56,950 nt of DNA from assembly GCA_964360535.1 (NCBI GenBank), contig CAYHXB010000001.1, positions 1 through 56,950 on the forward strand. Direction: 5' to 3'. Shown piece after piece: positions 1,648-44,683 of the stretch; position 1 is the stretch's first letter; the number at the start of each line of letters is the position of its first letter. The stretch is from an uncultured Candidatus Saccharibacteria bacterium. GTDB taxonomy: Bacteria; Patescibacteriota; Minisyncoccia; UBA6257; 2-01-FULL-56-20. Under the pieces are notes generated by a model. It made no database searches, was not told the DNA's origin, and saw nothing but the letters and a program-made list of their open reading frames with translations. The translations under genes and the position numbers were made by a program.

Positions 1648-3036
1648 ATGCTTCTTAAATTTTCCAAATTTTTTCTTTACGTTTCCGTATTCAGCGTCCT
1701 CATAGTAATGACTTCGACGTTTTTTCCGTTCATCGGCGGGAAAATGTATTTTTTCAGGGCAACAATCGAATTGTCGCTTATATTTCTTCTTTTCTGGTGG
1801 GGTTTTGAGGCTCCGGATGGCCATTTGTGGGCGCGTTGCAAGGAAATGTTCAAAAAGCCGCTCTTCGCGGCTGTTTCGGTTTTCGCCCTGGCTTTCACCC
1901 TGGCTTCGATTTTTGCTTTCGATTCGCACGCGGCCTTCTGGTCAAATTACGAGCGCGGTGAGGGTGGTTTCCAGATGCTTCATTTTTACGCTTTCTTTTT
2001 CCTTCTAGTTTTTCTTTTCAGGAATAAAAAGGATTGGGAAAGATTATTATGGACTTCCGTTTTTGCAGGCGTTGCCATGATACTTTACGGTGTCGGCGCA
2101 GCGGTTTTTGTGGTCAATCCGGACACCGGCGCTTTTTCAAATCCTTTCGGATTCGTCGGGCCGTACGCGACTCCTTCAAAGTTAGCGGCTTCTACTTTTT
2201 GGGGAAGGCTTTTTGATACTGAGCGTTTTCAGGGTTCGCTCGGTAACCCGGCTTACGTATCTCCATATCTTATTTTTTCCATTTTTTTCCTTTTATGGCT
2301 CTGGTTTTCCCAAAAAAGCAGGAATTTAGTCAAGAATATTTCCTACGGCGCGCTTAGTCTTTTCTTCATGGTATTTTTCTTTTTGGCGGCTACCAGGGGC
2401 GCGTTTGTTGGTCTGGCCGGCGCCGTGTTTGTTTTCCTGCTAGTTCTTGGCTTCGGACATATTAAAATAAGAAAATATGTTGGAGTCGGGATGGCCGTTT
2501 TGGCCATTATTCTAAGTTCACTTATTTATTATAGCCGCACTGATTTTGTAAAAAATCTGCCGGGTGGCCGCATGTTCGACCTTGGAGTGTCCGACCAGAC
2601 CTTCCAGACCAGACTTTGGACATGGAATTCGGCATGGCAGGGTTTTAAGGAGAAGCCGATTTTAGGGTGGGGCCCCGAGAATTTCTCAGCCGTTTTCGAC
2701 AAATATTTCGATACGAGGCACTACGTTCCTGGCAAAGGTTCAGAAACCTGGTTCGATTACGCGCATAGCGTCTTTTTTGACTATCTCGTTGAAACCGGAA
2801 TAATCGGATTCTTAAGTTTCCTCGGAATATTCGTGATTTTTTATCTGGAATGGTTTAGGAAACTGAAACATCAGAATCCGCTCTTTTGGGGACTTATGGC
2901 CGCGTTGCCTGTCAGTTATCTAATCCAGGGACTGGCGCTTTTCAACGTTTTTCCGATTTATATCAATTTATTTTTATTTCTGGCTTTCGCCTGCTACCAA
3001 CTTTATTATTCCGAACATAATTCTCCGCAATCATGA
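1648..3036 (+). CDS. O-antigen ligase/polymerase family (Wzy_C-type) polytopic membrane protein; paralog of 41557..42912
   Basis: 462-aa multi-TM ORF with 'LAATRGAFVGLAG' and 'ILGWGPENF' motifs. It shares long blocks with 41557..42912 ('RFQGSLGNP', 'GWGPENFS.VFDKYFDTR'). Confidence 0.75.
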   Translation: MLLKFSKFFLYVSVFSVLIVMTSTFFPFIGGKMYFFRATIELSLIFLLFWWGFEAPDGHLWARCKEMFKKPLFAAVSVFALAFTLASIFAFDSHAAFWSNYERGEGGFQMLHFYAFFFLLVFLFRNKKDWERLLWTSVFAGVAMILYGVGAAVFVVNPDTGAFSNPFGFVGPYATPSKLAASTFWGRLFDTERFQGSLGNPAYVSPYLIFSIFFLLWLWFSQKSRNLVKNISYGALSLFFMVFFFLAATRGAFVGLAGAVFVFLLVLGFGHIKIRKYVGVGMAVLAIILSSLIYYSRTDFVKNLPGGRMFDLGVSDQTFQTRLWTWNSAWQGFKEKPILGWGPENFSAVFDKYFDTRHYVPGKGSETWFDYAHSVFFDYLVETGIIGFLSFLGIFVIFYLEWFRKLKHQNPLFWGLMAALPVSYLIQGLALFNVFPIYINLFLFLAFACYQLYYSEHNSPQS

Positions 3037-3158
3037 ATCCCGTTAGAAACAACAATTCCATGAAATCAAAAAATATGTTTAATATTTCACACAAAAAGTC
3101 GTACACCACTCAAGCGGTTTATTCACGGTCGTCTTTGACGACCTGTTTCTAACGGGAT
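3037..3158 (+). repeat. Junction element copy 1: ~122 nt with 15-nt terminal inverted repeats (MITE-like or structured-RNA candidate)
   Basis: ATCCCGTTAGAAACA at 3037..3051 is the exact reverse complement of TGTTTCTAACGGGAT at 3144..3158. Internal hairpins lie at 3105..3118 and 3127..3143. Homologous copies lie at 36784..36906 and 44562..44683. Confidence 0.85.
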
Positions 3159-3786
3159 GAACAAGGACATAAAAAAAGCAGTTGCCGTTTCGATATCCAT
3201 TTTCCTGGCGCTGGTCGGTTATTATGGTTCTTATCTGCCGATGCAAAAGTCGATGCTTTTCATCACGGCCATGCAGAGGGCTGCCGGCATGAAAACCATA
3301 AACGACTTTGAGCAAAATTTTTCGATACCGCTTAATGTTCCTTCCCCGATAGGACAAGAAGAACTTGTGCGGAGCATGGCGAATACAATCGCCAACAGCT
3401 TCCAAAATGTTCCACAAAAAGAAGGCGTGGACGAATTGGTAAGATATGTGGAAAGTTACTTCAAACCTATAATTGACAGAAATAGGGGAATGAGTTTCGG
3501 CCAGGACATATACATTTTAGGGGCGATGAACGAATTCGCCTTCATTAAAACCGGAGACAAAAAATATCTGCAGGCAGCCGAGAATTATTTCAAGCGATCA
3601 GTTATTCTCGGTCCGAAACGCCCGCAGGGATTGTACGGTCTGCTTGATGTTTACAGAATGGAAGGAAACATAGAGGGATTTAAAATAACTGCCGAACAGA
3701 TTCTGTCGCAGTGGCCTGACGACGCGCGCACCAAGTCCGTTTATGACCAGTTCATGAAACTTGTTTCGCAGGATGCCAAGAAATAA
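3157..3786 (+). CDS. Hypothetical membrane-anchored protein with a TPR-like C-terminus; paralog of 42896..43489
   Basis: 209-aa ORF with one N-terminal TM helix. It shares 'SPIGQEE', '[11 protein letters not shown]' and 'WPDD' blocks with 42896..43489. Both copies follow a Wzy_C paralog. Confidence 0.6.
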
Positions 3787-28436: not shown

Positions 28437-28649
28437 ATGAAGTACACAACGGTTTCCATACCCGACCCGCTCAATAAAAAGGTCCAGAAACTCATTAAAG
28501 ACAGCGGATTCGCATCCACGTCTTCTTTTGTTACTTTCGTTCTGCGTGAGATACTTGCAGGGCACGAAGACAAAAGTTCGTTCTCGGGAGCAGAAAGCGT
28601 CAAGGCACAACTGGAAGCACTCGGATATCTCAAAAAAAAGAAGTCGTAA
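28437..28649 (+). CDS. Ribbon-helix-helix (CopG/MetJ/Arc-type) DNA-binding protein
   Basis: 70 aa. 'TTVSIPDPLNKKVQKLIKDSGFASTSSFVTFVLREIL' fits a beta-strand, helix, helix pattern. Confidence 0.6.
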   Translation: MKYTTVSIPDPLNKKVQKLIKDSGFASTSSFVTFVLREILAGHEDKSSFSGAESVKAQLEALGYLKKKKS

Positions 28650-28665
28650 AACAAAAAACAAAACC

Positions 28666-29739
28666 ATGGACAAACACCTTAAAGAACTCGAAGAAAAAAG
28701 TATATCGGTAATCAGGGAAGCGAAAGCGCGTTTCAAAAACGTAGCCATGCTTTGGAGCATGGGCAAGGATTCCACTGTTACGCTCGGGCTTGCGAGAAAA
28801 GCTTTTCTCGGGCACATTCCTTTCCCCGTCATACATATAGATAACGGAATAGATTTTCCGGAGACATACGCGCTCCGCAAAAAAGTTTCCAAAGATTGGG
28901 GATTCGAAATGGTCGTCGAGAAGAGCATAGTCAAACAGGACAAAATATCAGGAGTGGATTGTTGTGGCGGAAACAAAACCGACGCGCTCAAAAAAGTTAT
29001 GGATGAGCGGAAAATTGACGCACTAATAGTTTCTATCCGCCGCGACGAGCACGGCATCCGCGCCAAGGAACGATACTTCTCTCCGCGCGACAAGGAATAC
29101 AAATGGGACTACAAGAACCAGGCGCCGGAGATTTGGGATTACCTTTCCGATTTTCCGGAAAGCGACCATGTCCGCATCCACCCGCTTCTCCACTGGCAGG
29201 AAATAGACGTCTGGAAATACCTCAAGGCGGAAAAACTTCCAGTGAATCCGCTTTACTTTTCACGGAACGGCCTGCCTGCGCCGCGCCCAACAACTTATGT
29301 CATCAGATGTGAAGACAATAGTTTTTATATTGGCCAAACAGAAAATATGCCCAAGCGTTGGCAGGAACATAAAGAAGGTAAAGCTACTTGGACGAAAGAG
29401 CATAAACCTACAGAAGTTATCCATTTTGAAGAATTTGCTACGAGAGATGAGGCGGTGAAAAGAGAGAAAGAGTTAAAAACAGGTTTTGGGCGTCAATGGC
29501 TAAAGCGAGAATATAAAAAGGGTGCTTTACAAAAATGGTACGCGCCGCGGCAGGCAGGCGAAAGGTTCCGCTCACTCGGATGCACGAAATGCACCGTGGC
29601 GATGAAATCCGACGCGAAAACTTTGGACGAAATAATCGCGGAAATTGAAAAAACAACCGACTCGGAACGCGGAGGCAGGGCACAGGACAAAGAAAAAGAA
29701 TATGTCATGCAGCAGCTCCGCGCGCTGGGGTATATGTAA
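28666..29739 (+). CDS. cysD: Sulfate adenylyltransferase subunit 2 (CysD) carrying an internal GIY-YIG domain
   Basis: PP-loop 'AMLWSMGKDSTV', 'RRDEHGIRAKERYFSPRD', 'WDYKNQAPEIW', 'ERFRSLGC' and a C-terminal 'SERGGRAQDKE'. An extra 96 codons at 29272..29559 encode 'YVIRCEDNSFYIGQTENMPKRWQEH...EAVKREKELK'. Confidence 0.8.
   Translation: MDKHLKELEEKSISVIREAKARFKNVAMLWSMGKDSTVTLGLARKAFLGHIPFPVIHIDNGIDFPETYALRKKVSKDWGFEMVVEKSIVKQDKISGVDCCGGNKTDALKKVMDERKIDALIVSIRRDEHGIRAKERYFSPRDKEYKWDYKNQAPEIWDYLSDFPESDHVRIHPLLHWQEIDVWKYLKAEKLPVNPLYFSRNGLPAPRPTTYVIRCEDNSFYIGQTENMPKRWQEHKEGKATWTKEHKPTEVIHFEEFATRDEAVKREKELKTGFGRQWLKREYKKGALQKWYAPRQAGERFRSLGCTKCTVAMKSDAKTLDEIIAEIEKTTDSERGGRAQDKEKEYVMQQLRALGYM
29270..29559 (+). 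mobile_element. In-frame GIY-YIG nuclease cassette bounded by GC-rich inverted repeats
   Basis: The left arm GCCTGCCTGC-gc-CGCG (29270..29285) pairs with the right arm CGCGGCAGGCAGGC (29546..29559). A GGC direct repeat lies at 29269..29271 and 29557..29559. The cargo is a complete small GIY-YIG domain. Confidence 0.5.
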
Positions 29740-35825: not shown

Positions 35826-36783
35826 AAAACCGCTAGTTTCAATTTTGATAACCGCATACAATGCCGAGAAATTCATAAAAACGGCGCTGGAGTCGGCTTT
35901 GAGCCAAACCTATCCGAATGTCGAAGTCGTTATCGTCAATGACGGTTCAACCGACGGCACGGCTGGCGTTATGAAGCCGTATCTTAAAGACAAAAAAATT
36001 ATTTATTTCGAACAGCCCAATGGCGGAATTTCCATAGCGAGAAACAAAGCCTTTGAATTGTCACGCGGCTACTATATTACTTTTCTGGATGCAGACGATT
36101 TTTATGCTCCGGATAAAATTGAAAAAGAAGCCGAATTTCTTGAATCAAGTCCTGATTACGGCGCCGTCTACTGCCGTGTTTTGAGTTTTTACGACGGAGT
36201 TCCCGAGACCATGTACGGATATGACCGGCCGATGCCGGAAGGAGACATTTTCCGCGAGCTCTTAAAACACCAGTTCATAAATCCCGGTTCCGTTATGATG
36301 CGGCGCGAAGTTTTCGCTTCCGAGAACGGATTCAATCCGGATTTCCGCGACGCCGAGGACTGGGATTTGTGGAGGCGCTTGGCTTATCGGGGCGTCAAGT
36401 TCGGTTTCGTGAACAAGCCGCTACATCACAACAGGATAAGCAGAGGAACCCTTTCCGGCTTTCATAATCAGGTGAAGATGAAGAAAATGAACCTGATAAG
36501 CTTTGAAAATCTTTTTTCCAGAATGACGGAAGAAGAAAGGGAAAAATATGGAGCAAAAAAAATCATCCGTCTGCTAAGAATAAAATTGGGCGTGGCGCAT
36601 CTGCTTCTTTCAGAAAAGAAACAGGCGTTGGCTCTTTTTAAAGAAGCTTCGCGCGGAAGTATTTGGGCGATTTTTTATCCGTTCATATTGTTTTTTGTTT
36701 TATTAATGCCCGGCGGCTTCATTTCCTGGACCATAAAGTTCTTTTGGCAACTCAAGCATAAGATGCTATTTTATAAGGAATGA
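35818..36783 (+). CDS. Glycosyltransferase family 2
   Basis: 'VSILITAYNAEKFI' and 'FLDADDF' (DxD). Alternative in-frame ATGs lie at 35806 and 35812. The C-terminus has TM helices. Confidence 0.8.
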   Translation: MNKKPLVSILITAYNAEKFIKTALESALSQTYPNVEVVIVNDGSTDGTAGVMKPYLKDKKIIYFEQPNGGISIARNKAFELSRGYYITFLDADDFYAPDKIEKEAEFLESSPDYGAVYCRVLSFYDGVPETMYGYDRPMPEGDIFRELLKHQFINPGSVMMRREVFASENGFNPDFRDAEDWDLWRRLAYRGVKFGFVNKPLHHNRISRGTLSGFHNQVKMKKMNLISFENLFSRMTEEEREKYGAKKIIRLLRIKLGVAHLLLSEKKQALALFKEASRGSIWAIFYPFILFFVLLMPGGFISWTIKFFWQLKHKMLFYKE

Positions 36784-36906
36784 ATCCCGTTAGAGACAAA
36801 CATTCAATGATTTGCAAAATATCCCATATATTAACTCTCAAAAAGTCGGTTGCCGTTCAAGCGGCTTATTTACGGTTGTCTAAAGACAACCTGTCTCTAA
36901 CGGGAT
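36784..36906 (+). repeat. Junction element copy 2
   Basis: TIRs ATCCCGTTAGAGACA (36784..36798) and TGTCTCTAACGGGAT (36892..36906). Hairpins at 36852..36865 and 36874..36891. Confidence 0.85.
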
Positions 36907-37963
36907 GAAAAGAGAGAAGATTTTAATAACCGGAGGAGCGGGATTTATCGGTTCTCACACGGCCGACGCGCTTTCAGAAAAGGGATATTCCGTAGTCATT
37001 CTGGACAATCTTCAGCCGCCGGCGCACAAGGGGCGTTGGCCGAAATACGTTTTGAACAAGGGATTCACGCTCATACGCGGAGATGTTCGCAAAAGAGAAG
37101 ATTTGCTCAAGGCGCTTAAGGGCGTTTCTTACGTTTATCATCTGGCGGCCTACCAGGACCAGCGGCCTGATTTCAGCAAATTCTTTCACACTAACACGGT
37201 CAGTTCCGCGATTATTTATGAATTGATCGTTGAAAAGAAGCTACCGGTCAAAAAGGTTATTCTGGCCAGCACGCAGTTTGCCTACGGCGACGGCGTTTAC
37301 CAGTGCAAACACAACGGAAAGTTTTTCTTCCCTGAGGTCAGGACCGAAAAACAATTCAAATCGAAAAAGTTCGACATACTTTGCAAACACGGCCAGCATG
37401 CAAAGTATTATCCGCTCCGCGAAGAACAGCAGCTGACGCCGACCAATGCATACGGCCTTTCTAAGGAAGCCATTGAGCGGCTGGCGCTCCGTTTCGGCAA
37501 AACCTATGGCATACCGACGACGCTTCTACGCTATTCAATAGTCCAGGGACCTAGGCAGTCGCCGCTTAATCTTTATTCCGGCGCCCTCCGCATATTCGTC
37601 ACGCAGGCACTTTCCGGAAAGCCGATTACCGTTTACGAAGACGGCAATCAGACGCGCGATTTCGTTAACATAAACGATGTCGTCGCGGCAAATCTGCTTG
37701 CCATGAAAAACAAAAAAACAAACTTCGAAATTTTCAATGTCGGAGGAGGAAAGGCCTTAAAAGTGGTTGATTTCGCGAAACTCGTCAAAAAAATAATTCC
37801 TACGAAGTCACAAATAGTAATCGGAGGATTCAGGAGAACCGACACACGCCACGCCGTATCAGATGTTTCAAAACTTAAAAAACTCGGCTGGAAGCCGAAA
37901 TTCACTCCCGAAAAATCCGTTAAGGATTACGCCGAGTGGTATCGGAGCGAATATGGCGCGTAA
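36905..37963 (+). CDS. NAD-dependent epimerase/dehydratase family SDR
   Basis: 'ILITGGAGFIGSHT', 'YGLSKEAIE' (YxxxK) and 'DGNQTRDFVNINDV'. Confidence 0.8.
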   Translation: MKREKILITGGAGFIGSHTADALSEKGYSVVILDNLQPPAHKGRWPKYVLNKGFTLIRGDVRKREDLLKALKGVSYVYHLAAYQDQRPDFSKFFHTNTVSSAIIYELIVEKKLPVKKVILASTQFAYGDGVYQCKHNGKFFFPEVRTEKQFKSKKFDILCKHGQHAKYYPLREEQQLTPTNAYGLSKEAIERLALRFGKTYGIPTTLLRYSIVQGPRQSPLNLYSGALRIFVTQALSGKPITVYEDGNQTRDFVNINDVVAANLLAMKNKKTNFEIFNVGGGKALKVVDFAKLVKKIIPTKSQIVIGGFRRTDTRHAVSDVSKLKKLGWKPKFTPEKSVKDYAEWYRSEYGA

Positions 37964-44551: not shown

Positions 44552-44561
44552 TAAAAAATGA

Positions 44562-44683
44562 ATCCCGTAAGAAACAACAATTACATGGAATCCAAAAATA
44601 TGTTAAATATCACACATAAAAAGTCGTCCACCGCTCAAGCGGTTATTCACGATTGTCTAAAGACAATCTGTTTCTAGCGGGAT
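44562..44683 (+). repeat. Junction element copy 3
   Basis: TIRs ATCCCGTAAGAAACA (44562..44576) and TGTTTCTAGCGGGAT (44669..44683). Hairpins at 44630..44643 and 44651..44668. Confidence 0.85.

Follow-up and report, generated by a model that had tools for sequence, protein, structure and literature searches.

The 56,950-nt stretch of DNA analysed here (the window), from an uncultured Candidatus Saccharibacteria bacterium, contains three copies of an element of about 120 nt that is bounded by inverted repeats and ends on the start codon of the gene downstream of it. [quoted passage not shown] Coordinates are positions in the window unless they follow a locus label (L and a number), which denotes a retrieved relative; c12, c14 and c19 denote clusters of the short form of the element.

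Exactly three copies were found in the window, all on the + strand and at the places where the initial annotation had put them, and sequence, alignment and covariance-model scan agree on this. A covariance model of 58 family members, run over the whole window with filters off, returned these three only (125, 122 and 100 bits; next best E=0.34), and the arm pattern at zero to one mismatch returned only their six arms. The terminal inverted repeats, TCCCGT(T/A)AGA(A/G)ACA...TGT(T/C)TCTA(A/G)CGGGA (arms T-CCCGTNAGANACA / TGTNTCTANCGGG-A), are 14 nt long rather than the 15 nt first reported, since the fifteenth pair (A...T) belongs to a 4-bp direct repeat, TGAA, present on both sides of all three copies. 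The common junction layout is A-TGAA-T[CCCG...CGGG]A-TGAA, and each copy ends in the base that serves as the A of the downstream ATG. The left ATGAA is part of the element junction and not of the upstream gene, because it is still there at copy 3, where the stop of the upstream gene comes 10 nt earlier. Identity between copies 1 and 3 amounts to 84.3%, and copy 2 reaches 70.2% with each of them, in line with the 80-85% estimated previously for the closer pair and the greater divergence ascribed to copy 2; mean column identity of the three-copy alignment is 83%, and the interiors of copies 1 and 3, taken alone, are 82% identical. The upstream genes end 0-10 nt from the element and all three copies lie within co-directional gene runs. 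The description of the element as the whole intergenic spacer therefore holds for copies 1 and 2, where the upstream TGA lies in the left repeat, but at copy 3 the element is only most of the spacer. Four features that account for the element had not been noticed in the initial annotation: the duplicated TGAA flanks, the rebuilt start codon, an open frame that reads through the element and a long form encoding a GIY-YIG nuclease.

Further copies and empty sites, which the initial annotation had suggested looking for, were both found. Public genomes and metagenomes hold hundreds of copies, nearly all from Patescibacteria (the Candidate Phyla Radiation, CPR), in two size forms with the same arms. 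A two-arm pattern scan of 185,579 species genomes gave at least 117 loci, nearly all in Patescibacteria and from many of its classes; among the loci listed are a few metagenome-assembled genomes (MAGs) labelled Elusimicrobiota, Omnitrophota and others. Homologues of window proteins carry names such as Liptonbacteria and Tagabacteria, and window proteins also occur on contigs from the 0.1 µm (ultra-small-cell) fraction of Hainich groundwater well H51. A scan of viral contigs gave 0 matches, PLSDB plasmids gave no DNA match, and phage records gave no tblastn match to the long-form nuclease. The glycan-operon setting first described is true of the window copies but incidental to the family, as the genes downstream of 92 other copies represent 148 Pfam families, none of them in more than four genes, and include rplB, rpoC, ftsZ and ssb. 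When 123 distinct short copies were oriented by the hairpin adjoining one arm (P3), a gene start lay at the P3 end in 99 and at the opposite end in one. The three bases from the right-arm end read ATG in 107 of the 123, and an open reading frame (ORF) of at least 60 codons opens there in 100 of 124.

The left flank of the element repeats the right flank. Pairs of ATGAA with ATGAA were seen 49 times, ATGGA with ATGGA 12 times and ATGAG with ATGAG four times, along with ATGCA, ATGTA, ATCCA, GCGGG and (G)TCAA. Across 206 distinct copies, short and long, the 4-nt flanks match in 111, compared with a permutation mean of 52 (maximum 67 in 2000); where the right flank is other than TGAA, they match in 31 of 87 copies against 2.9 expected, with TGGA, TGAG, TGCA, TGTA, TCAA, TCCA, CGGG, TTTT and TGAT among the matching flanks. 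Terminal bases are complementary in 199 of the 206 (T/A 164, C/G 31, G/C 4). Flank pairs of the kind GTGAAT/ATGAA and TTGGAT/ATGGA indicate a duplicated unit of 4 bp and a rebuilt ATG whose A is contributed by the last base of the element itself; these pairs rule out a 5-bp ATGAA duplication, and a 2-bp GA duplication with 15-nt arms was discarded because it ignores the co-variation of the fifth base (ATGAG with ATGAG). The window has 70 TGAA sites in other non-coding DNA versus 25 ATGAA gene starts. Residence on start codons, at about 80%, exceeds what a TGAA preference together with removal of disruptive insertions would give, so that either targeting is more specific than the tetranucleotide or insertions elsewhere disappear faster.

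Some copies in the family are tandem or nested. Head-to-tail tandems, 4-6 nt apart, were seen at L011 1302-1546, L047 ~1160-1420, L061 2828-3300, L206 6081-6768 and in the right flanks of L182 and L188. Copies in the unassigned MAG of L047 and in MAGs labelled Elusimicrobiota or Omnitrophota have C...G termini and lie off start codons, and their linkers or flanks read GTGAC, GTT(T/C)AC or GTAAAC. Mini-hairpins of 26-69 nt that consist of the two arms and little or nothing else (L050 1616-1641, L194 5235-5264, L192 226-269, L040 4717-4764 and L221 1960-2028), appear to be the extreme end of a deletion series.

Orthologous sites were found both occupied and empty. At the hddA-gmhA junction, which holds copy 3 in the window, relatives carry the same element, a different subtype or none (see table). 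The empty junctions read ...AGATAAAAA/ATGAGAGAC... and ...CAATAAAA/ATGAAAGAC..., with the general form ...AAAAA/ATGA(A/G)AGAC... (the slash marks the boundary between the genes). The simplest history would be two independent insertions into the same gmhA start codon, one of them from a copy-1-like source in the window genome. Other pairs of occupied and empty sites lie before murF (L088 vs L060) and between rpoB and rpoC (L101 vs L099). The hddA-gmhA junction of L230 (1392-1500; the same in L231; gmhA 86% identical) holds an unrelated 109-nt spacer without arms, and this junction seems prone to gaining inserts. L228 (2812-3177) carries, in an otherwise syntenic heptose operon, a 121-aa 23S_rRNA_IVP gene (PF05635) that is not in the window.

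Positions of the three window copies and state of related junctions.
Feature	Position	Strand	Remarks
Copy 1, left direct repeat TGAA	3034..3037	+	holds TGA stop (3034-3036) of upstream Wzy_C gene; A 3033 completes left ATG
Copy 1, element (120 nt)	3038..3157	+	left arm 3038-3051; right arm 3144-3157
Copy 1, interior		+	A-rich variable region; internal ATG 3060-3062; P3 hairpin 3127-3143
Copy 1, read-through ORF	3033..3152	+	39 codons, from left ATG to TAA 3150-3152 in right arm, 4 nt short of host ATG
Copy 1, right direct repeat TGAA	3158..3161	+	with A3157 forms ATG of downstream 209-aa gene (3157-3786)
Copy 2, left direct repeat TGAA	36781..36784	+	holds TGA stop (36781-36783) of upstream GT2 gene
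Copy 2, element (121 nt)	36785..36905	+	left arm 36785-36798; right arm 36892-36905
Copy 2, interior		+	small hairpin 36852-36865; P3 hairpin 36874-36891
Copy 2, read-through ORF	36780..36908	+	42 codons; stop TGA 36906-36908 overlaps host ATG (ATGA)
Copy 2, right direct repeat TGAA	36906..36909	+	SDR/epimerase gene starts at 36905
Copy 3, left direct repeat TGAA	44559..44562	+	upstream hddA-like gene already ended (TAA 44549-44551)
Copy 3, element (120 nt)	44563..44682	+	left arm 44563-44576; P3 hairpin 44651-44668; right arm 44669-44682
Copy 3, arms		+	one G.T pair, one A.A mismatch
Copy 3, read-through ORF	44558..44677	+	39 codons; stop TAG 44675-44677, 4 nt short of host ATG
Copy 3, right direct repeat TGAA	44683..44686	+	gmhA starts at 44682
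Empty target context			...AAAAATGAAAGAC...
hddA-gmhA junction, L235			gmhA 99% identical; same element as copy 3
hddA-gmhA junction, L228			gmhA 91%; precisely empty
hddA-gmhA junction, L236			gmhA 90%; precisely empty
hddA-gmhA junction, L226			gmhA 89%; precisely empty
hddA-gmhA junction, L238			gmhA 89%; precisely empty
hddA-gmhA junction, L239			gmhA 88%; different subtype, G-C arms, unrelated interior

The long form of the element, about 275 nt, has arms identical to those of the short form (about 118 nt) and contains an intact ORF for an 88-94-aa UPF0213/Slx1-like GIY-YIG nuclease (for example, MNPVRDNKTYYVYVLRSTKDKRWYTGLTDDLRKRFKEHNAGHVGWTNGRGPFELIYYEMCKNITDARSREKYFKSGMGKRYLKNRLKRFLSLTG). 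This protein scored 60.6 bits against the Pfam GIY-YIG domain (PF01541) and 21.7 bits, under the cut-off of 56, against the NCBIfam group I intron endonuclease model. Its closest solved structures are the UPF0213 proteins 1zg2 and 1ywl (BH0048, EF2693) and an SLX1 homologue, 7wme. At E≤1e-5 it matches 3535 protein clusters, the best of which, almost without exception exactly 94 aa long, have MNPVRD (left arm) and KRFLSLTG (right arm) in near-invariant form and invariant catalytic-type Tyr, Arg, His and Glu residues. The left arm supplies either the first codons (NPVRD) or the 5′ leader, and the right arm the last codons (SLTG) and a stop that overlaps the host ATG; in about 95 of 106 long copies an ORF of at least 80 codons ends in TGA or TAA at +2 to +4 past the right arm. 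Scanning metagenomes for the long spacing gave 105 loci, including two from the Hainich H51 assembly to which the window also belongs (ERZ1292623) and a single locus from well H14. A short copy accompanies the long one on at least 12 of the metagenome contigs that were picked for the latter. In 1.6 Mb of retrieved DNA, 148 arm pairs are 100-129 nt apart and 112 are 260-289 nt apart, with a few tiny arm-only hairpins and no arm pair above 300 nt, a bimodality that is partly a search artefact because the two scan patterns selected for those two spacings. The window copies do not encode a GIY-YIG domain (their 39-42-aa peptides have no Pfam match), which is confined to the ~275-nt relatives.

Terminal inverted repeats, a duplication of fixed length, small size, many copies at unrelated loci without a mobility gene and precise empty sites are all present, and the element has every structural feature of a MITE except, within the 1.6 Mb of retrieved DNA, a conventional transposase-encoding partner. 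Together with the longer coding relative with identical arms, this supports in substance the MITE option that had been offered for the window copies. The partner with the same ends encodes a GIY-YIG nuclease and not a known transposase.

The two forms also have stems in common. In the long form an internal stem of 13-14 bp joins core nt ~86-100 (codons L-R-K-R-F) with the 14 nt before the right arm (codons L-K-R-F-L), and it co-varies at synonymous sites (GC 50, AT 24, TA 2 and CG 1; CG 62 and TA 17; TA 45 and CG 24). The P3 hairpin of the short form occupies the place of this stem; the 5′ half starts, in the short form as in the long one, at core nt 84-88 after the same (G/A)ATTTACGG, and an internal ATG at about +17 to +21 is a further link. 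P3 of cluster c14 (GGAAGCG...CGCTTCC, GGATGCGCTT...AAGCGCATCC) has stayed similar to the two stem halves of the long form, GGAAGCGCTT / AAGCGCTTCC, and that of c19, the cluster of the window copies, has drifted (GGTCGTC, GGTTGTC, GATTGTC), with double compensatory changes at six of the seven P3 pairs. Arm position 10 co-varies as well (G-C in 101 copies, A-T in 16). An intermediate of 203 nt, L176 7114-7316 (- strand), still encodes the GIY-YIG N-terminus MFYVYVLQSIKDKKLYTGFIGDLR before a replaced centre. The most economical reading derives the short form from the long one through deletion of the ~155 nt that the stem encloses and that encode the catalytic core; both arms would have been retained, along with the halves of the internal long-range stem, now joined as P3. 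The short form is a lineage of its own, with interior motifs common to copies at unrelated loci and in unrelated genomes and absent from the long form. At L176 7114-7316 the position of P3 is taken by a nested element of about 105 nt with related arms, TCCCGTTAGAAGC...GCTTCTAACGGGA, and an AT-rich loop.

These common motifs also bear on whether the short copies move. They could instead be immobile, each a remnant decayed in place from a full-length GIY-YIG gene through the invasion, decay and loss of a homing endonuclease. Long and short forms do occupy the same type of site in the same orientation, L176 is a partly deleted intermediate, and the open frame could be inherited. The motifs CCATGATTT and AAAAAGTCG and a GCCGTT...GCGGC hairpin, however, recur in short copies at unrelated loci and are lacking in the long form, and independent decay would not converge in this way. 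In addition, copy 3 is closer to copy 1 than to the orthologous-site copy of L239, with four intermediate lineages empty; the sizes are tightly bimodal, with no continuum; and the pattern so far is one of grouping by short-form subfamily and not by locus or sister long copy. Decay in place is accordingly judged quite improbable.

In the predicted fold two bases of the host AUG, A and U, are taken up in the terminal stem (P1), and P3 is stacked directly on that stem. No Shine-Dalgarno-like motif was present in the 14 nt upstream of 27 ordinary window starts (0/27; e.g. 3792, 14814, 22105 and 43532), window leaders are A/T-rich, and 25 of 52 window genes start with ATGAA; the genome appears to use Shine-Dalgarno-independent initiation. 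Each of the three window copies has an open frame that begins at the left ATG and includes, about 21 nt into the element, an in-frame internal ATG. A frame that ends beside the host ATG is open through the interior in 51 of 60 copies of c19 (15.5 expected from dinucleotide shuffles) and 12 of 15 of c14 (5.0 expected), and in five of 22 of c12 (5.4 expected). Among copies with a host start of ATGG, which leaves no room for an overlapping TGA, 11 of 11 use the TAA frame, and those with ATGA divide 28 to 20 between the two frames; this contrast has p=0.007, approximately, only if copies are independent, which they are not. Substitution rates of 0.25, 0.22 and 0.22 by codon position argue against any constraint on the peptide. 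We read this as selection for ribosomes to cross the element and end at the host start (termination-reinitiation) rather than for a peptide. Ribosomes would start at the left or the internal ATG, cross the element, stop at the TAA or TAG in the right arm or at the overlapping TGA, and restart on the host ATG; their passage would melt the stem that otherwise buries this ATG, in a genome without Shine-Dalgarno sites. A Shine-Dalgarno sequence upstream of the left ATG was considered and rejected (AAGG motifs in 18 of 72 vs a 19% background), and with it the idea of a split ribosome-binding site in which the stem brings the Shine-Dalgarno sequence near the AUG. Translational hopping between the two AUGAA sites was likewise set aside, as a maintained, stop-matched frame is better explained by read-through and restart.

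Subfamily c12 (22 loci, e.g. L026 1827-1947, L012 7021-7138 and L006 3150-3269, in MAGs labelled Saccharibacteria or Yanofskybacteria) has the usual arms, a 9-bp P3 and no open frame, together with a conserved interior box GCGGTGGCC and, also inside the element, a sequence close to that of the right arm, TCTTAACGGGA. This internal copy could be an alternative partner for the left arm in place of P1. Since c12 has this copy instead of an open frame, it must remain tolerable to the host by other means.

Could the 39-42-codon ORF encode a functional small protein? The frame is open in all three window copies as well as in the c19 members counted above, but the equal substitution rates at the codon positions speak against it, as do the use of different frames by different copies in the 3′ part, the lack of any Pfam match for the peptides, a hairpin covariation that rewrites the encoded residues, and the absence of the ORF from c12. 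Such a protein is scarcely credible. The suggestion that each copy is a portable promoter and 5′ untranslated region driving the downstream gene fared little better and is very improbable: the 5′ half is AT-rich and loose -35/-10-like hexamers can be picked by eye in each copy, but a consensus scan found no sigma-70-like site inside the three copies, with counts in the surrounding DNA at shuffle level, and the hexamers that had been proposed occupy the most poorly conserved columns of the 58-sequence family alignment. The position of the copies within co-directional runs, so close to the end of an upstream gene, also argues against a promoter.

A third suggestion, that of a structured intercistronic RNA, has a modest probability. 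In its strongest form the element would be a cis-acting RNA of the host (a translational gate, thermosensor or RNase processing site) whose terminal stem hides the start codon, mobility being merely how it arrived. Each window copy folds well beyond dinucleotide shuffles (z -5.6 to -6.6 on the + strand, -4.5 to -5.4 on the - strand), P1 and P3 are both kept by compensatory changes, the host AUG is partly paired in P1, and copies persist at orthologous sites across species (e.g. L014/L045, L029/L111 and L055/L101). Set against this are the lack of a common function among the downstream genes, a hypervariable interior with no conserved pocket-like core, and close relatives that manage without the element at this junction. 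The stems are conserved also within the coding sequence of the long form, which indicates that they belong to the element and not to any host gene. Furthermore, G.U-type and A.C-type mismatches are about equally frequent, with no favour to pairing of the sense-strand RNA; the conserved pairing may thus act in DNA, as a folded single strand or cruciform for a structure-specific Slx1-like nuclease, with or instead of RNA. A host regulatory RNA is therefore considered unlikely. With conserved stems, a hypervariable interior and diverse downstream genes, the element does not have the character of a riboswitch or another cis-regulatory RNA, in which a conserved structured core would lie upstream of functionally related genes. 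Rfam, which the initial annotation had named as a possible source of an identity, gave no match in the window (Rfam 15, gathering thresholds) and none at the element positions at E≤1 in five loci of diverse subtypes.

Several other identities were tried and rejected. A free-standing homing endonuclease gene, which spreads through cleavage and repair to one cognate, homologous site, does not account for copies at many unrelated gene starts with inverted arms and 4-bp duplications. Integron attC core sites have the form 5′-RYYYAAC...GTTRRRY-3′ and lie downstream of the cassette ORF; here the polarity is reversed (5′-GTTAGAG...CTCTAAC-3′) and the flanks are duplicated. A CRISPR-like array, as which the tandem copies could be taken (a 32-nt palindromic repeat with spacers of about 92 nt), does not fit copies that are mostly solitary and have "spacers" homologous to each other. 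P3 followed by TGTTTCT scores like an intrinsic terminator only in copies 1 and 3 and no more often than background; the sequence in most family members is TGTCTCT.

Taken together, these data suggest a course of events for the MITE-like element. It would land in a tetranucleotide TGRR of the host start context (between A and TGAA) and duplicate those 4 bp. Since its first base is T and its last is A, the element would rebuild the host ATGAA at the right junction, and the left junction would keep the original ATG along with the TGA stop of any upstream gene overlapping that start. The nuclease of the long form may mobilise the short form in trans. The ~275-nt parent itself may represent a previously unrecognised class of prokaryotic transposable element, a proposal we hold to be quite possible while short of probable. 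Its sole gene would be the 94-aa Slx1-like GIY-YIG nuclease, acting on folded ends of the element in which a 14-bp terminal stem is stacked on the 13-14-bp internal stem, both co-varying even within the coding sequence. It would target the TGRR of start codons, make 4-bp duplications and regenerate the upstream stop and downstream start, and the 120-nt copies would be its non-autonomous, translationally transparent derivatives.

A number of points weigh against reading the window copies as MITE-like derivatives of the GIY-YIG minigene element. No long copy with these arms is present in the 57-kb window. GIY-YIG enzymes, which are hydrolytic nucleases, are not known as catalysts of transposition. 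About 46% of copies have no matching flanks, which could reflect decay of the left copy or another mode of spread, and presence and absence alone do not separate insertion from precise excision. Short interiors without arms have no significant similarity to the long form in DNA (nhmmer profile) or protein, the best match of an N-terminal nuclease profile to them having E=0.22, so that derivation by deletion depends on geometry, short common motifs and the one intermediate. Coupling is not universal, given that c12 has arms and P3 without an open frame. Finally, copies are related by descent, and the counts of open frames, of ATGG and ATGA starts and of covariation are therefore not independent events.

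The element resembles several known systems in part. Neisseria Correia/NEMIS, enterobacterial ERIC/IRU, Yersinia YPALs and pneumococcal RUP are MITEs co-transcribed with neighbouring genes. Like the element, they are 100-170 bp long with inverted repeats, short target duplications, no transposase gene and many copies; they lie within one transcription unit, form a long hairpin in mRNA and are present or absent at orthologous sites. Unlike them, the element has as its only longer same-arm relative one that encodes a 94-aa GIY-YIG nuclease rather than a DDE insertion sequence, and it combines residence on start codons, a 99:1 orientation bias, a rebuilt ATG, a read-through frame and a co-varying hairpin. 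Rickettsia palindromic elements are palindromic repeats of about 100-150 bp whose insertion is compatible with host gene expression, and for which no conventional transposase is known. The element is of similar size and palindromic character and likewise survives by this compatibility. The Rickettsia repeats are, however, in frame inside coding regions and translated within the host protein, whereas the element forms a separate coupled frame before the start codon and has a protein-coding parent form. Among elements moved by Y1 HUH transposases are IS200/IS605, with their PATE derivatives, and REP/REPIN sequences, with RAYT. There too end hairpins are kept by structure rather than sequence and miniatures far outnumber the coding form, but such elements make no target duplication and lack terminal inverted repeats of this kind, in contrast to the 4-bp duplications and GIY-YIG nuclease found here. 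The seg genes of phage T4 are free-standing GIY-YIG homing endonuclease genes that spread by 'intronless homing' in a cycle of invasion, decay and loss. They too are small selfish nuclease genes wedged between host genes and co-transcribed with them, with remnants expected. Seg-type enzymes differ in having a DNA-binding domain and one cognate site, without inverted repeats or target duplication; the protein of the element is a bare domain of about 90 aa, found at hundreds of unrelated gene starts with 14-nt arms and 4-bp duplications. No description of the arms, duplications, start-codon residence or miniature form was found in the searchable literature, which is incomplete.

The long-form protein is of the UPF0213 type. 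UPF0213 / COG2827 / prokaryotic Slx1-like proteins (YhbQ, BH0048, EF2693) are a minimal stand-alone GIY-YIG domain, and in a 2006 survey the family was taken to consist mainly of vertically inherited repair-type nucleases (PMC1564403). That survey describes one recent GIY-YIG insertion into an HsdR gene, of which an 80%-identical homologue lacks it, and contains no inverted-repeat arms, target duplications, start-codon residence or miniatures (PMC1564403). A parallel to the HsdR case is seen in the window at 29270-29559 (+), where a CysD/PAPS-reductase-like gene (ORF 28528-29739) has an in-frame GIY-YIG domain inside its PAPS_reduct domain (PF01507 aa 72-357, PF01541 aa 255-320). Inspection by eye places another, GC-rich inverted repeat at the ends of the insert, GCCTGCCTGC(GCCGCG) at 29270-29285 and (CGCGCCGCG)GCAGGCAGGC at 29541-29559, and the insert is 39% identical to the nuclease of the start-codon element. 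It looks like a second kind of arm-bounded GIY-YIG mini-element, read through within the host protein.

Genomes of the CPR are tiny, tightly packed and usually described as poor in mobile DNA. In the window the element reaches a density of about one copy per 19 kb, elsewhere it stands before essential genes (rplB, rpoC, ftsZ, ssb and murF), and standard annotation does not reveal it. The thousands of database entries that these phyla have under the names "GIY-YIG nuclease family protein" or "excinuclease ABC subunit C" probably represent this element in its coding form. In practical terms, the repeats will break assemblies, mislead the calling of gene starts and create spurious ORFs of 94 aa or 40 aa. 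The parent has a substantial chance of being a new class of mobile element. If the nuclease does move the element, a new class of enzyme would be added to the short list of transposition mechanisms; if it does not, the element would still be a natural insertion that repairs the signals it interrupts, by duplicating stop and start and providing a frame that hands ribosomes on to the host gene.

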